This document shows positions 1,564 through 4,517 of a stretch of 64,000 nt of DNA, piece after piece (positions within the stretch are counted from its first letter, which is position 1; every line of letters starts with the position of its first letter). A program made the translations under genes and the position numbers. The stretch is from Acidobacteriota bacterium (lineage in GTDB: Bacteria > Acidobacteriota > UBA890 > WLXD01): the NCBI GenBank assembly GCA_965248695.1, contig CBDFKD010000002.1, positions 5,216,001 to 5,280,000 of the forward strand, in the 5' to 3' direction. Below the pieces are notes generated by a model. The model was given only the letters and a program-made list of their open reading frames with translations, did no database searches and had not been told where the DNA came from.

Positions 1564-1634
1564 GGTGGTGGTGGGCTGGTGCCGGCTCCGGGCTTCCTAT
1601 CTACGGGTCACGGGTTCGATCCCCGCCACCTCCA
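1564..1634 (+). pseudogene. Degenerate tRNA-like gene (loop CTTCCTA, nominal anticodon TCC)
   Basis: GGTGGTG/CACCTCC acceptor (1 mismatch) with A73, T-arm CGGG-TTCGATC-CCCG and a 5-nt variable loop GGGTC at canonical spacing. The anticodon stem and D-arm are eroded. Confidence 0.6.
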
Positions 1635-1719
1635 CACCGTTACCACCACACTAAACCTCCCGCGCACGTAGTCGTCAACGCTGATCGGCCACTCGGGTAC
1701 AAAATAAGGCTGGAGCATT

Positions 1720-1995
1720 TCATTTGCCGGCTTCGGGGGCAACGAAGATCTCCTTCGCATCGTGCGATGACAGCGTGATTTCCCGGTCCTCGTTATCGCC
1801 GATGTAACCAACGTCTGCGAGCGTCACAGTTCTTCCAACATCTTCCGGTGCTACCACGATGCTCAGAGGCAGTTCGGAGGATCTCGGAAACATGTACATT
1901 CGCGTTAGGAAGCCGCGATTCACAGCCTCAGCCAACTCAGCGGCAGCAACGTCTTTCGTGATGCCTTCGATGCTCGCGTATTCAGCTACGTCCAA
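1720..1995 (-). CDS. Hypothetical protein (possibly a fragment)
   Basis: 91-aa ORF with globular, protein-like composition; no recognisable family. Confidence 0.45.
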   Translation of the reverse strand: MDVAEYASIEGITKDVAAAELAEAVNRGFLTRMYMFPRSSELPLSIVVAPEDVGRTVTLADVGYIGDNEDREITLSSHDAKEIFVAPEAGK

Positions 1996-2251
1996 ATAGC
2001 GCCCCCCCGTTCGACGGTATACAGTCTCGATCTAAATAGCACCTAGCCCGAGGGTAGAGAGACAATCCGATCAGAGGAAGGTGCTCTCTACCCTCGGGGG
2101 CTTGGATCTGGTCGCATCAAGAGCCTCAGCGGCCGGCGGATCAGGTTCGGGCGGCCCGCCGTGCTCATCGGTGCCGTGCGGAGCCCTGGGCGTGGATGGG
2201 AGCCGGGTGTCGCCGTCGGGATCGCGGTTACCTGGTAGGGAGGCGTGTGAT

Positions 2252-2548
2252 TTACCCCAACACCACTAGAGTATCGATCGTTGTCCCTAGCGCTCTAGCA
2301 ATGCGGGACAGCGCGGCTGTAGAGCCGGGCTTGAGCCCACGTTCGATCTCAGACAGATATCCTGTAGCGATGCCCGTCTTGGCGGTGAGGTCGCGCACTG
2401 TGATGCCGTAGTGGGCGCGGAATGCAACGATTGGGCGTTCACCCTCCATAATGGCAAGTGCCACCTCGTGCGGGATACGGCTCCCATCATCTGCCTCGAG
2501 TGCGGCTAACCGATCCTCAAGTTCTTCCTTGCTGGCAACAAGGGCATC
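2252..2548 (-). pseudogene. N-terminally truncated XRE HTH antitoxin/regulator
   Basis: Frame reads DALVASKEELEDRLAALEADDGSRIPHEVALAIMEGERPIVAFRAHYGITVRDLTAKTGIATGYLSEIERG...; an in-frame TAA lies just upstream, so the normal start is missing. Confidence 0.65.
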
Positions 2549-2722
2549 GTGAATTTATTGCAATTCATAATTTCTGGATAATTTGCAGTTGCTTCTGCAG
2601 TTCACCTGTACTGAACGAAGACGAAGTGATCGACCAGTACGGCATCGCGCCCGAGCGGGAACACCAGAAAGGCCGCCTGCGGCTGATCAGCTTACGAGAG
2701 GCGTCTGCCTGAGAAGAAAGGT

Positions 2723-2807
2723 GCCATCGTGGCGAAATCGGCAAACGCACCCGGTTTGCGACCGGGCGGCTGTCTAGGCCTTGTGGGTTCGAGTCCCACC
2801 GATGGCA
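2723..2807 (+). tRNA. Class II tRNA with tRNA-Leu body but anticodon TGC (Ala)
   Basis: Full cloverleaf: acceptor GCCATCG/CGATGGC, A73, D-arm GCG-AAATCGGCAAA-CGC, anticodon stem CCCGG/CCGGG with loop TTTGCGA, variable arm GGCT-GTCTA-GGCC, T-arm GTGGG-TTCGAGT-CCCAC. CCA is not encoded (ACCT). Confidence 0.9.
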
Positions 2808-2879
2808 CCTAAAGTACCTCCAGCAGCATCGAACCGTAGCCGCCGTGCCGCCACGATGGCGAATGTTACTTGTAACAGT

Positions 2880-3035
2880 ATGGCGCAACGTGACACAGAC
2901 CGTAAGGAACCGTCGAAGCCCGGCCCTGATGCCGAGCGGCTGAAGATCGACGACGATCCCGAGGAAGCCCTACAGCGGCTCCTGAAGAACGCCCCCGCGC
3001 CAGAAGAACCGCGACCGCCCCGTCGACCGCGTTGA
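2880..3035 (+). CDS. Small hypothetical protein
   Basis: MAQRDTDRKEPSKPGPDAERLKIDDDPEEALQRLLK...; a short charged ORF of a type seen near mobile elements. Confidence 0.45.
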   Translation: MAQRDTDRKEPSKPGPDAERLKIDDDPEEALQRLLKNAPAPEEPRPPRRPR

Positions 3036-3120
3036 CTGACAACAGCCGGTATTCAGCGACCGTCGCCACCCTCAGCAGATTTCAACAGGTACATACTCCC
3101 GAATACCTTTGAACAAAATA

Positions 3121-3154
3121 TCGGGTGGCCCTCGTTTCTTCGATAGGCCACCCG
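3121..3154. terminator. GC-rich hairpin (possible - strand terminator)
   Basis: TCGGGTGGCC ... GGCCACCCGA perfect 10-bp inverted repeat, preceded by an A-rich run. Confidence 0.45.
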
Positions 3155-3305
3155 AAGAAGTCCCGTAGCTCAGGGACACCCGTCTCACGTGCCCCCTAGG
3201 TTAGCACAAGCGAAGCGCTCCACAGCGCCGGTTTTGAGATAACGAACCAAAGGTGGTCGTCGTGAATGCCGGTCGTGTCGTGAAAGCTGTCGCCGGCCTC
3301 AACAA

Positions 3306-3416
3306 TCACCCCGCTGCACCAGCTGATCGGATTATGTCGACCTTCTTGCTGAACGCGTTTGTTAGGCGAGTAAATCTGCGCATGTTCATGCGCATGGTCA
3401 GGTTCTGCCGCTCGAT
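3306..3416 (-). pseudogene. C-terminal remnant of an IS1-family transposase
   Basis: IERQNLTMRMNMRRFTRLTNAFSKK nearly matches VERQNLTMRMSMRRFTRLTNGFSKS in the transposase at 4749-5585. Confidence 0.8.
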
Positions 3417-3577
3417 TCGCCGGAGAGCCGATGAGCTAGAAGAACTTCTCATCGAAAGCGTCGATGACCCATCCGACCTCGACCACGAGCGCGTCAAGGC
3501 TCTCGAATACAGCCAAGCCGGTATCAGGCCCCATACCTTCGCCGAAGACTACGCGCGCGACCACAAGCGTATCCATT
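3416..3577 (+). repeat. 162-bp direct duplicate of 8236-8397
   Basis: Identical on manual comparison from TTCGCCGGAGAGCC to AAGCGTATCCATT at offset 4820. Confidence 0.9.
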
Positions 3578-3836
3578 CGGCAACTAATGCAGATCCGAAT
3601 CCGAAAATGAGAGCAAACCGCAACAGCGATCGCGTCGGCTGCGAGAATGCCCCCGGCAAACGGGTGCTGTCCTAATTTGAACTGCTCGAAGTTTATGAGT
3701 GATTTACAACGATTTATATCATGCAGGATGGACTCTCCCTTAACTTACTTTATACTTTCACTTAAATCGTATTGACGGGAGAGAGACTATGGTTCTAGGC
3801 TCTGACAGGTTGTGGGAAACGGCGTTTAGGGGACTC

Positions 3837-4391
3837 ATGGACCCGAAATTGCTTGTCGAAAGGTACCAGTACTTATCCAGGAAGCGACGCGAGATCGAGG
3901 GGAAGATGGCGGCCCTGGCGGAAATGCAGCAAGTCTTAGGGGTGGAATTGGACGACGTAAACGACCAGCGCGCCATGCTTTGGCTTCAGCTCGATCGACA
4001 GGCTCTGCTTGATCGTGACGATATCCGCGAGTATCTCGGTGACGCCACGAAGCCGCCTGGCATCAAGCGCGTGCGTGCCGAACAGGTAGACCGAGACTTG
4101 ATGAGATACCTGGCCAATCAAGATGGTCGGGAATGGCGCGTCCGGGACATCCTCACGCACAAGAACGCCATGCGGCTCGGCCATATGTCTGATAGCGGTG
4201 TTCGGGCGGCGATTAACCGCGCCATCGAGCGCGGCGAACTGGAGAAGACTGGCGGATGGGGGATCGTTCGCGTATCGGACCGAGGTAAGGAGTCTTACGG
4301 TCTTGATGCCGAGGCTGACTTGGAAGAACAAGACATGGACCTGGCCGAGAAAGAGGCCATGGAAAAGGAGAAGGCTAGGCCACCGTTCTGA
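3837..4391 (+). CDS. Hypothetical protein: coiled coil plus probable winged-helix domain
   Basis: N-terminal heptad region; 'WRVRDIL...SDSGVRAAINRAIERGELEKTGGWG' is wHTH-like. An AT-rich region with TTGACG (3772) lies upstream. Confidence 0.65.
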   Translation: MDPKLLVERYQYLSRKRREIEGKMAALAEMQQVLGVELDDVNDQRAMLWLQLDRQALLDRDDIREYLGDATKPPGIKRVRAEQVDRDLMRYLANQDGREWRVRDILTHKNAMRLGHMSDSGVRAAINRAIERGELEKTGGWGIVRVSDRGKESYGLDAEADLEEQDMDLAEKEAMEKEKARPPF

Positions 4392-4393
4392 AC

Positions 4394-4428
4394 AAAGAGC
4401 CCGCCGCTGCGGTAACAGCGACGGGCTC
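4394..4428. terminator. Hairpin between the ORF and the tRNA
   Basis: GAGCCCG-CCGCTG-CGGTAA-CAGCGA-CGGGCTC stem, preceded by AAA. Confidence 0.45.
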
Positions 4429-4442
4429 CGACAACTTGTGAT

Positions 4443-4517
4443 GGCCTCGTGGACAACAGACGGTCAAGTCGCGGGACTGGAAATCCCGAGATCCCGGTTC
4501 GACACCGGGCGGGGCCT
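4443..4517 (+). tRNA. Class I tRNA with tRNA-Cys body but anticodon GGA (Ser)
   Basis: Acceptor GGCCTCG/CGGGGCC, U73, 3-bp D-stem GAC/GTC with A13.A22, anticodon stem CGGGA/TCCCG with loop CTGGAAA, 4-nt variable loop, T-arm CCCGG-TTCGACA-CCGGG. Confidence 0.88.

Follow-up and report, generated by a model that had tools for sequence, protein, structure and literature searches.

The three tRNA-like genes considered here lie in a 64,000-nucleotide stretch (the window) of the genome of an Acidobacteriota bacterium, designated G000 (5.89 Mb, 65% G+C; GenBank assembly GCA_965248695.1), at positions 5216001-5280000 of its contig C2. We believe, with moderate confidence, that the trio came together by an accident of rearrangement and is not a three-part system. 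Its second member, an 87-nt class-II tRNA with the anticodon UGC (hereafter tRNA(UGC)), is part of the conserved end module of an IS1595-family transposon, where it would read GCA codons, would probably be charged with leucine and would act as a brake on copy number. The three genes are as follows.

1564..1637, + strand: relic resembling the tRNA-like domain of tmRNA (5' and 3' ends), from ARAGORN, Rfam and comparison with ssrA.
2723..2809, + strand: class-II Leu-type tRNA, anticodon UGC, from ARAGORN, Rfam (58.2 bits) and a tRNA-Leu alignment.
4443..4518, + strand: class-I tRNA, G1-G2-C3...U73, anticodon loop CUGGAAA (GGA), from ARAGORN and Rfam (50.2 bits).

ARAGORN called all three on the + strand, at 1564-1635 (Arg cct), 2723-2809 (Ala tgc, 87 nt) and 4443-4518 (Ser gga, 76 nt), in agreement with an earlier reading of the same DNA (the original prediction). 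Against the Rfam tRNA model RF00005 (gathering score 29 bits), the second and third calls proved to be tRNAs and the first did not. The mismatch between body and anticodon that had been proposed for all three likewise stands for the 87-nt gene (Leu body, UGC) and the 76-nt gene (class I, GGA) and falls for the first, which is no tRNA. None of the three encodes CCA, as had been noted, but this is not distinctive: at most 17 of the 59 ARAGORN tRNA calls genome-wide carry a 3' CCA string, and the canonical Leu, Ser and Arg tRNA genes of G000 all do without an encoded CCA.

ARAGORN gives the second gene a flawless class-II tRNA fold, in which the acceptor stem has 7 bp and the T stem 5 bp; the variable arm is long, the discriminator is A73 and the anticodon loop reads UUUGCGA. 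Its nearest relatives within the genome are the tRNA-Leu genes (0.63-0.70 identity), and its D-arm matches the Leu tRNAs of related genomes column for column in an alignment with six of them. The class-II arm, the layout of the D-arm and A73 are leucine-identity features. All are present in tRNA(UGC), which has the class-II arm, a 3-bp D-stem with an 11-nt loop carrying G18 G19, and an A73 that follows the acceptor stem in all nine members found in the survey described below. A leucine anticodon (NAG or YAA) is missing, UGC standing in its place in 9/9. The determinant of tRNA-Ala, G3:U70, is also missing, since pair 3:70 is C-G in 9/9.

Selection on this RNA was assessed from the nine distinct sequences, the first five of which are 63-81% identical. 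The RNAalifold consensus is a class-II cloverleaf of 25 pairs, that is 225 pair cells, of which 94.2% hold standard pairs; 15 of the 25 stem pairs show compensatory changes on both sides. Shuffled controls reached the observed value in 0/500 cases for four of five measures and in 25/500 for the fifth, and slid controls pair at 35-48%. U33, U34, G35 and C36 are invariant across the nine, whereas the anticodon stem itself changes by compensation. A diverged copy in a sequencing run of another organism differs by 13 substitutions and 7 gaps over 2625-2903 (279 nt), with a single substitution inside the 87-nt tRNA, in the loop of the variable arm. Judged from these alignments, tRNA(UGC) is under selection both for the cloverleaf and for the anticodon UGC. 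The original prediction had suggested comparing anticodons with stems across relatives, and had raised free anticodon drift, with the folds kept as processing marks or integration hot-spots, as an alternative. For the second gene the fixed anticodon and the covarying stems point to function and contradict drift, and the homologous loci bear the same odd UGC tRNA, not ordinary ones.

An identical copy of the second gene at C2:1586595-1586681 lies inside a complete transposon of 3,355 bp (C2:1583617-1586971, or locus L048:5618-8972), which has 22-nt terminal inverted repeats and the 8-bp target duplication AATAACTT. The transposase matches Pfam DDE_Tnp_IS1595 (PF12762, E 2.9e-39) and Zn_ribbon_IS1595 (PF12760, E 5.7e-11), and both domains are present in all of the best 120 listed transposase homologues. 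Inverted repeats together with 8-bp target duplications, the mark of the IS1595 family, were found in three insertions. The element reads inverted repeat, transposase, variable cargo, class-II tRNA(UGC), small basic open reading frame (ORF), inverted repeat. In the complete copy the cargo is a 225-aa ORF followed by a 410-aa HTH_3 + Peptidase_M78 gene (L048:7353-8585); the tRNA begins 10 nt past this gene, and the 59-aa small ORF lies about 65 nt from the element end. The window holds a truncated version of the same element at 2550-3101, without a transposase, with the following parts.

2550..2608, + strand: fragment of the stretch between transposase and cargo, 100% identical to C2:1584709-1584767 (L048:6710-6768).
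2608..2712, + strand: remnant, by BLAST, of the last ~35 codons of the HTH_3 + Peptidase_M78 (ImmA/IrrE-like) cargo gene.
2856..3035, + strand: small ORF of 59 aa, with a basic N-terminus and then PGP..ERL.I..DP..A...LL, from translations 3' of each tRNA.
3080..3101, + strand: terminal inverted repeat, right end of the IS1595 element, identical to the right repeat of the complete copy (L048:8951-8972).

Positions 2608-3112 of the window are 99.4% identical to C2:1586480-1586982. Because the fragment at 2550-2608 directly joins the end module, an internal deletion of ~1.7 kb is implied. Past 3101 the window copy retains ~11 nt of the original flank; this and its layout argue that duplication and deletion, and not transposition, produced it. 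The copy is truncated and immobile. In run X5, from another organism, a contig aligns with 2608-3101 and ends exactly at the element end, 3101. No Pfam or PHROG family was found for the small ORF.

The small ORF served to follow the module through the phylum. A protein search over 401 genomes returned 10 genomes at E up to 0.01, with 12 loci: two are those of G000 (L054, L064), seven were scanned by ARAGORN (L055-L060, L065), and three weak, stop-containing ones (L061-L063) were left out. At the weak loci L059 and L060 ARAGORN found no tRNA. A class-II tRNA(UGC) of 88-89 nt adjoins the small ORF in genomes G200 (two copies), G002, G398 and G171, and across the tRNA from the small ORF stand transposases 56-69% identical to that of G000 in G002, G171 and G200. 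G398 has the tRNA and the small ORF without a transposase. The two G200 copies are 99.96% identical over 2.49 kb and have inverted repeats and the 8-bp target duplications TCAATTTT and ATCACAAA; since near-identical copies sit in different target duplications, this element has moved recently. A stricter pattern (Leu-type D-arm plus UGC) matched 3/401 genomes and missed most members, so that the small ORF is the better handle.

Within the family of G171, the transposase was found at E up to 1e-80 in 12/251 genomes (G171 included). The two closest, in G600 and G611 (79% and 73% identical), share the end sequence and come with both tRNA(UGC) and the small ORF, whereas for eight remoter ones (45-50%) the ~5 kb read held no tRNA. 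In a further genome of this family, G483, a different class-II tRNA with the anticodon UGG lies beside the transposase. When the transposase alignment was run against a viral collection, three loci were obtained, of which two (contigs L082 and L083) carry tRNA(UGC) and the small ORF in the same layout and the third ends at a contig edge 1 kb upstream. The order transposase, cargo, tRNA(UGC), small ORF is thereby found in G000, G002, G171, G200, G600, G611, L082 and L083, and the IS end sequence of G000 recurs 3' of the small ORF in G002, G171, L082, L083, G600 and G611. The middle cargo varies between elements; the tRNA and the small ORF are constant. Overall, nine distinct tRNA(UGC) sequences were found, eight of them with a readable transposase gene. 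Searches with the exact anticodon arm in viral, genome and metagenome collections returned chance hairpins or coding sequence and no tRNA.

A partial copy was seen in G007, of another genus in the same family as G000, where the first 63 nt of tRNA(UGC) are present at 100% and are followed by unrelated sequence (C2:521905-521967 of that genome; L053/L002). This suggests, from the identity of the retained part, a recent transfer followed by truncation.

The transposase genes hold a second signal. In the first four of them, the invariant alanines 98 and 203 (G000 numbering) are GCA in 4/4; 4 of 80 invariant four- or six-fold degenerate columns share one codon, and the permutation P for two GCA columns is 0.0012. 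The prediction that codons 98 and 203 are GCA was made on these four genes and checked in four further tRNA-bearing ones, all of which have GCA at codon 98. Codon 98 is therefore GCA in 8/8 tRNA(UGC)-bearing genes and in 0/11 relatives without that tRNA, where it is GCC (6), GCG (3), GCT (1) or CTG (1). Codon 203 is GCA in 7/8 (Tyr in L082), and the 11 relatives have Arg (9), Phe (1) or His (1) at this residue. Among the eight genes, which are 56-78% identical in amino acids, codon 98 is the sole single-codon column of the 62 invariant four- or six-fold columns (expected number 0.03; permutation P 2.5e-4). GCA makes up 9.0% of the alanine codons of the G000 genome. In the genes compared, the transposases of tRNA-bearing elements keep this rare codon at the invariant Ala 98, and mostly at 203.

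The idea that GCA-98 is kept for an out-of-frame ATG formed with the next codon was rejected, L082 having GCA followed by another Ala codon (IWKAASS).

A possible mechanism connects the two signals. The RNA would work as a tRNA that reads GCA. LeuRS, the leucyl-tRNA synthetase, would probably charge it, because it has a Leu-type body and A73 and has no G3:U70. Leucine would then be inserted at a fraction of GCA codons, and the conserved GCA-98, at a site that needs a small residue, would serve as the sensor codon. More copies of the element would mean more of the tRNA and more altered transposase, and the result would be a brake on copy number. That an IS1595 clade carries its own missense tRNA and uses it on its own transposase, so that transposition would be held to copy number by programmed mistranslation, is a proposal we make only tentatively.

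Several observations weigh against it. The eight tRNA-bearing elements form one clade, so the count of 8/8 against 0/11 does not represent 19 independent events; the 11 comparators include one unpublished genome (G166), and "without the tRNA" means ~5 kb upstream and 0.4 kb downstream read for nine relatives and a 10-kb locus for G383. GCA is not enriched where relatives have a hydrophobic residue (Leu/Ile/Val/Met/Phe): 6/50 GCA codons lie at such positions against 12/117 other Ala codons (P 0.46), as in controls. Residue 98 in 120 close homologues is A 114 times, T 3 times, S twice and V once, and is never Leu; leucine is therefore not the functional residue there. This and the missing hydrophobic enrichment argue that GCA does not stand in for a leucine required for activity, and the brake is accordingly only one way to read the conservation of the codon. 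A single LeuRS and a single alanyl-tRNA synthetase (AlaRS) were found in G000, with no second copy of either, and no dedicated charging enzyme is therefore indicated. Position 55 of the T-loop is C in 4/9 tRNAs (L057, L058, L082, L083), where elongator tRNAs have U, and in two others (G002, G398) the acceptor stem is one base out of balance, at runs of C or G. These irregularities may be assembly errors or decay, and they also fit a tRNA-like RNA of another role.

Class-II Leu-type tRNAs with a UGG-type (proline) anticodon were observed beside remoter IS1595 transposases, at L105:4795-4883 (G483) and L081:3878-3968 (G166), and are placed differently relative to the element than the UGC module. 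Two positions of the G166 transposase are CCA (Pro), against Phe/Arg or Ile/Val/Leu in 17 or 18 relatives; the CCA codons of the G483 transposase are common to its relatives. The existence of this second, rarer set hints that the principle may have been used more than once.

A role that involves no decoding is the first alternative, and we regard it as a serious rival, though rather unlikely. The RNA could be a cut mark for RNase P/Z that frees the message of the small ORF, a binder of the small protein, or another RNA-based regulator of transposition. The arrangement fits such a role: tRNA(UGC) lies 40-50 nt before a conserved ORF with a Lys/Arg-rich N-terminus, and both read toward the IS end. 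The C55 substitutions and imperfect acceptor stems are likewise unusual for working elongator tRNAs. A precedent exists in the irregular tRNAs of Acidobacteria near toxin-antitoxin or transposon genes, for which non-translational functions are suggested in the main text of their description (PMC5389517). Punctuation, however, needs the acceptor and T domains only, yet the anticodon is invariant and its stem is kept by compensation. A non-decoding RNA also leaves unexplained why the cognate codon in the transposase is frozen in all eight genes, at the only such column.

The third gene has a history of its own. It is a sound class-I tRNA of 76 nt, with U8, G18 G19, U33, the T-loop TTCGA and a 5-nt variable loop. 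The tRNA-Ser genes of G000 are class II and 90-97 nt long, and the third gene has no such long arm. Its nearest relative in the genome is tRNA-Cys (0.70 identity), and it shares the acceptor end of G000's own tRNA-Cys (G1-C72, G2-C71, C3-G70, U73). U73 and these three pairs are determinants for the cysteinyl-tRNA synthetase (CysRS). The tRNA-Cys anticodon GCA is replaced by GGA in both paralogues. An identical copy lies at C1:1975-2050, on a 128-kb contig, and a 66%-identical paralogue at C2:2238653-2238727 has the same CUGGAAA loop and acceptor end, while in seven stem pairs both bases differ and pairing is retained. A BLAST search of 41 related genomes found the gene in G000 only, and the pattern GGC...U73 with the CUGGAAA loop matched only the three G000 sites among 201 genomes of the phylum. 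Its exact anticodon arm gave chance hairpins or coding sequence and no tRNA in viral and metagenome collections. As far as its sequence can tell, it could act as a Ser-to-Cys missense tRNA with poor charging, or as an RNA outside translation. It is an orphan tRNA duplicated together with an IS1-like element, in the following surroundings.

3789..4391, + strand: ORF of 200 aa without a known family; the segment duplicated on C1 includes its codons 49-200, and a hairpin (4397-4428) comes after it.
3932..6489, + strand: 2.56-kb segment with the third gene, the IS1-like element and a 153-aa ORF, 99.96% identical to C1:3-2561 (inverted).
4629..5660, + strand: IS1-like insertion sequence, transposase 4716-5585, with weak Pfam DDE_Tnp_IS1 and helix-turn-helix (HTH) matches; ends approximate.

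The borders of the IS1-like element are indicated by a partial copy that begins at window position 4629 and by contigs that break near 4685-4708 and 5627-5660. IS1-like elements stand 0.1-0.3 kb from both paralogues, in opposite orientations. The possibility that the tRNA is cargo of this element was rejected, as the gene lies outside the left end and the orientation differs at the paralogue. The C2 paralogue is bracketed by a 10-nt inverted repeat (GGGGCGGGAA ... TTCCCGCCCC; L049:6644-6750, or C2:2238643-2238749), and the flanks could for this reason extend its acceptor helix.

The first gene is different again. Its ARAGORN fold is poor, with mismatched acceptor and anticodon stems, and it gave no match to RF00005 even at E up to 1. 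With relaxed thresholds, 71 nt at 1567-1637 matched the tmRNA model RF00023 at both model ends only (18.1 bits, cut-off 47; E 1.6e-4). The tmRNA-like 3' strand described in the original prediction was confirmed, the last 25 nt agreeing at 88% with the 3' terminus of ssrA in this genome. As a tmRNA the gene falls short, both of the 47-bit threshold and in the tag reading frame and pseudoknots; the real ssrA is called by ARAGORN elsewhere in the genome. No further copy of the first gene was found in G000. On this comparison it is ~70 nt of debris of a tmRNA-like tRNA domain, possibly old attachment-site material. A search for an attachment repeat between it and the integrase end of the element (20-26 kb; integrase at 22.7-23.8 kb) found none.

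Just upstream, at 1458-1546, lies a ~90-bp element with an internal inverted repeat, 82% identical to C2:553689-553777. A similar sequence, reversed, was seen by eye just upstream of the truncated tRNA(UGC) of G007 (L002, about 1375-1480). The element may be a small mobile repeat.

The first 12 kb of the window, at 59-61% G+C and thus lower than the genome, are a patchwork in which nearly every piece of 0.1-2.5 kb has an 80-100% identical copy elsewhere on C2 or on C1, by BLAST against the genome itself. This mosaic bears out the earlier description of tRNA-like genes alternating with gene remnants and IS pieces. Sequencing-run contigs break at its repeat borders, and one weak contig joint (2924 to 4493, 24 nt on a side) was disregarded. 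Between the second and third genes lie two further pieces, identified by BLAST against the genome and, for the first, by tblastn with the transposase.

3337-3416, within junk pieces 3337..3577: fragment of an IS1-like transposase.
Within 3337..3577: 162-bp junk piece, repeated at window 8236-8397.

The decay of all three genes as pseudogenes or attachment-site debris, with odd anticodons produced by drift, must be considered in such surroundings. The first gene is clearly degenerate, the region is full of truncated genes and IS pieces, the G007 copy of tRNA(UGC) is cut after nt 63, the window copy of its element is without a transposase, and C2:1401818 has one more odd tRNA-like gene, whose anticodon stem is broken. 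Drift is nevertheless excluded for tRNA(UGC) at the level of the family by its fixed anticodon and covarying stems. The paralogues of the third gene keep the anticodon loop and acceptor end at 66% identity with their seven stem pairs compensated. The tRNA 3'-end duplications that had been expected to bound the intervening fragments were not seen either: BLAST of the second and third tRNAs against the genome returned full copies only. As an account of the whole trio, decay is an improbable one.

A still less probable explanation is that tRNA(UGC) is charged with alanine and supplies decoding of rare GCA codons to the genes of the element, much as phage tRNAs match phage codon use. GCA is indeed rare in the host, the conserved GCA sits where alanine is the family consensus (114/120), and hydrophobic positions show no excess of GCA. 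Against this, the universal alanine determinant G3:U70 is missing and the body is class II and Leu-like, the host already has a tRNA-Ala(UGC) of its own, and the provision of a tRNA gives no reason for freezing a synonymous site.

The first ~24 kb of the window are an integrated element, and ordinary chromosomal genes follow from 24.4 kb onward. Its annotated genes are listed below.

13722-15026: DnaN-like sliding clamp gene.
15624-16505: DUF3799 PDDEXK nuclease gene.
16502-17569: phrog_3657 gene.
19308-20333: DUF1376 gene.
22716-23831: tyrosine integrase gene.

Among the scanned ORFs no capsid or terminase gene was found, and the status of a prophage is for this reason not established. A plasmid search with contig C1 gave no match, and a promoter scan gave nothing exceeding chance. 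From 8145 to 12000 the window holds gene-sized repeat families with many diverged copies on C1 and at 1.22, 2.75-2.79 and 5.22-5.24 Mb of C2, including an internally repetitive stretch at 11.0-11.6 kb; Pfam gave no family for ORFs 8256-9122 and 10824-11870. Elsewhere on C2, the tRNA-like gene at 1401818-1401892 has an Arg-like class-I body and a disrupted anticodon stem (ARAGORN "Ser cga"); a truncated IS1-like transposase copy stands 0.7 kb away. Two tRNA-Sec calls (4678307-4678404 and 5559422-5559519) have identical 3' two-thirds and differing 5' parts, and one may be a rearranged copy.

The original prediction had joined the three genes into a single prophage "recoded tRNA" system acting with nearby RelE-like and HEPN-like toxins. 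Of such toxins we found no sign, as Pfam shows only XRE-type HTH proteins in the neighbouring ORFs. At E up to 1 there was no family for ORFs 772-1143(-) and 8256-9122(-), and at E up to 0.01 no RelE, ParE or HEPN match for ORFs 772-1356(-), 1720-1995(-) and 3789-4391(+), although distant relatives could escape either search. In favour of one system, the genes stand within 3 kb on one strand, in an element with an integrase, DnaN-like, PDDEXK and DUF1376 genes and near XRE-type HTH genes, which are typical antitoxin partners, and irregular tRNAs near toxin-antitoxin genes have the precedent described in PMC5389517. It is nonetheless scarcely credible, because each gene belongs to a separate repeated segment with its own history: the second moves with IS1595 and is in the window a 0.5-kb duplicated scrap that keeps some of its original flank, the third is confined to G000, the first has no copy, and in no genome searched do the three recur together.

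The reading that we prefer, a transposon-borne tRNA that decodes GCA, has partial counterparts among known systems. The tRNAProX of Streptomyces are class-I proline tRNA variants with alanine or other anticodons, which have a dedicated synthetase paralogue, ProRSx, and bring about deliberate mistranslation. Both cases are bacterial and combine the tRNA body of one amino acid with an anticodon that reads alanine codons; tRNA(UGC) differs in its class-II Leu-type body, in the single AlaRS and LeuRS of its genome and in being borne by a transposon. The nev-tRNAs of nematodes, class-II leucine-type tRNAs with Gly or Ile anticodons, are similar in joining a class-II Leu-type body to the anticodon of another amino acid, but they are eukaryotic and not transposon-borne. 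The IS1595 family, reportedly defined by Siguier and colleagues in 2009, is said to include some members with passenger genes. The present elements resemble it in the DDE transposase with an N-terminal zinc ribbon, the short inverted repeats, the 8-bp target duplications and the extra genes. RNA-OUT of IS10 is an element-encoded antisense RNA responsible for multicopy inhibition of transposition. The proposed logic is alike: a trans-acting RNA of the element whose dose rises with copy number would lower the output of transposase. RNA-OUT is antisense, whereas the agent proposed here would be a tRNA acting on a codon.

For the allo-tRNAs described from soil bacteria including Acidobacteria (Mukai et al. 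2017, PMC5389517), roles as missense suppressors or as regulatory RNAs were put forward. As their main text presents them, they share with tRNA(UGC) a long variable arm, an anticodon mismatched to the body and a position near toxin-antitoxin or transposon-related ORFs. They differ in the 12-bp acceptor branch, which is 8/4 or 9/3 in allo-tRNAs and 7/5 in the tRNA(UGC) consensus, and in their serine identity, tRNA(UGC) having A73 and a Leu-type D-arm. The main text (PMC5389517) never mentions "UGC", and in it we found no fixed link to an IS family and no matching transposase codon. In the literature searched, taken as that outside ISfinder, subscription journals and supplements, we found no tRNA gene as constant cargo of an IS, no frozen cognate codon in a transposase and no bacterial Leu-type tRNA with an alanine anticodon.

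Genome annotation should not count an 87-nt "tRNA-Ala(tgc)" call beside an IS1595 transposase as an alanine tRNA. Natural tRNAs that misread sense codons are rare and much discussed, as tRNAProX, allo-tRNAs and nev-tRNAs illustrate, and tRNA(UGC) is a fixed transposon part across several families of one phylum and metagenomic contigs. If it decodes, it would offer a natural tRNA scaffold that is charged with leucine and blind to the anticodon. The element would then be the first known transposon that comes with a decoding rule of its own, and its transposition might be limited in a new way.

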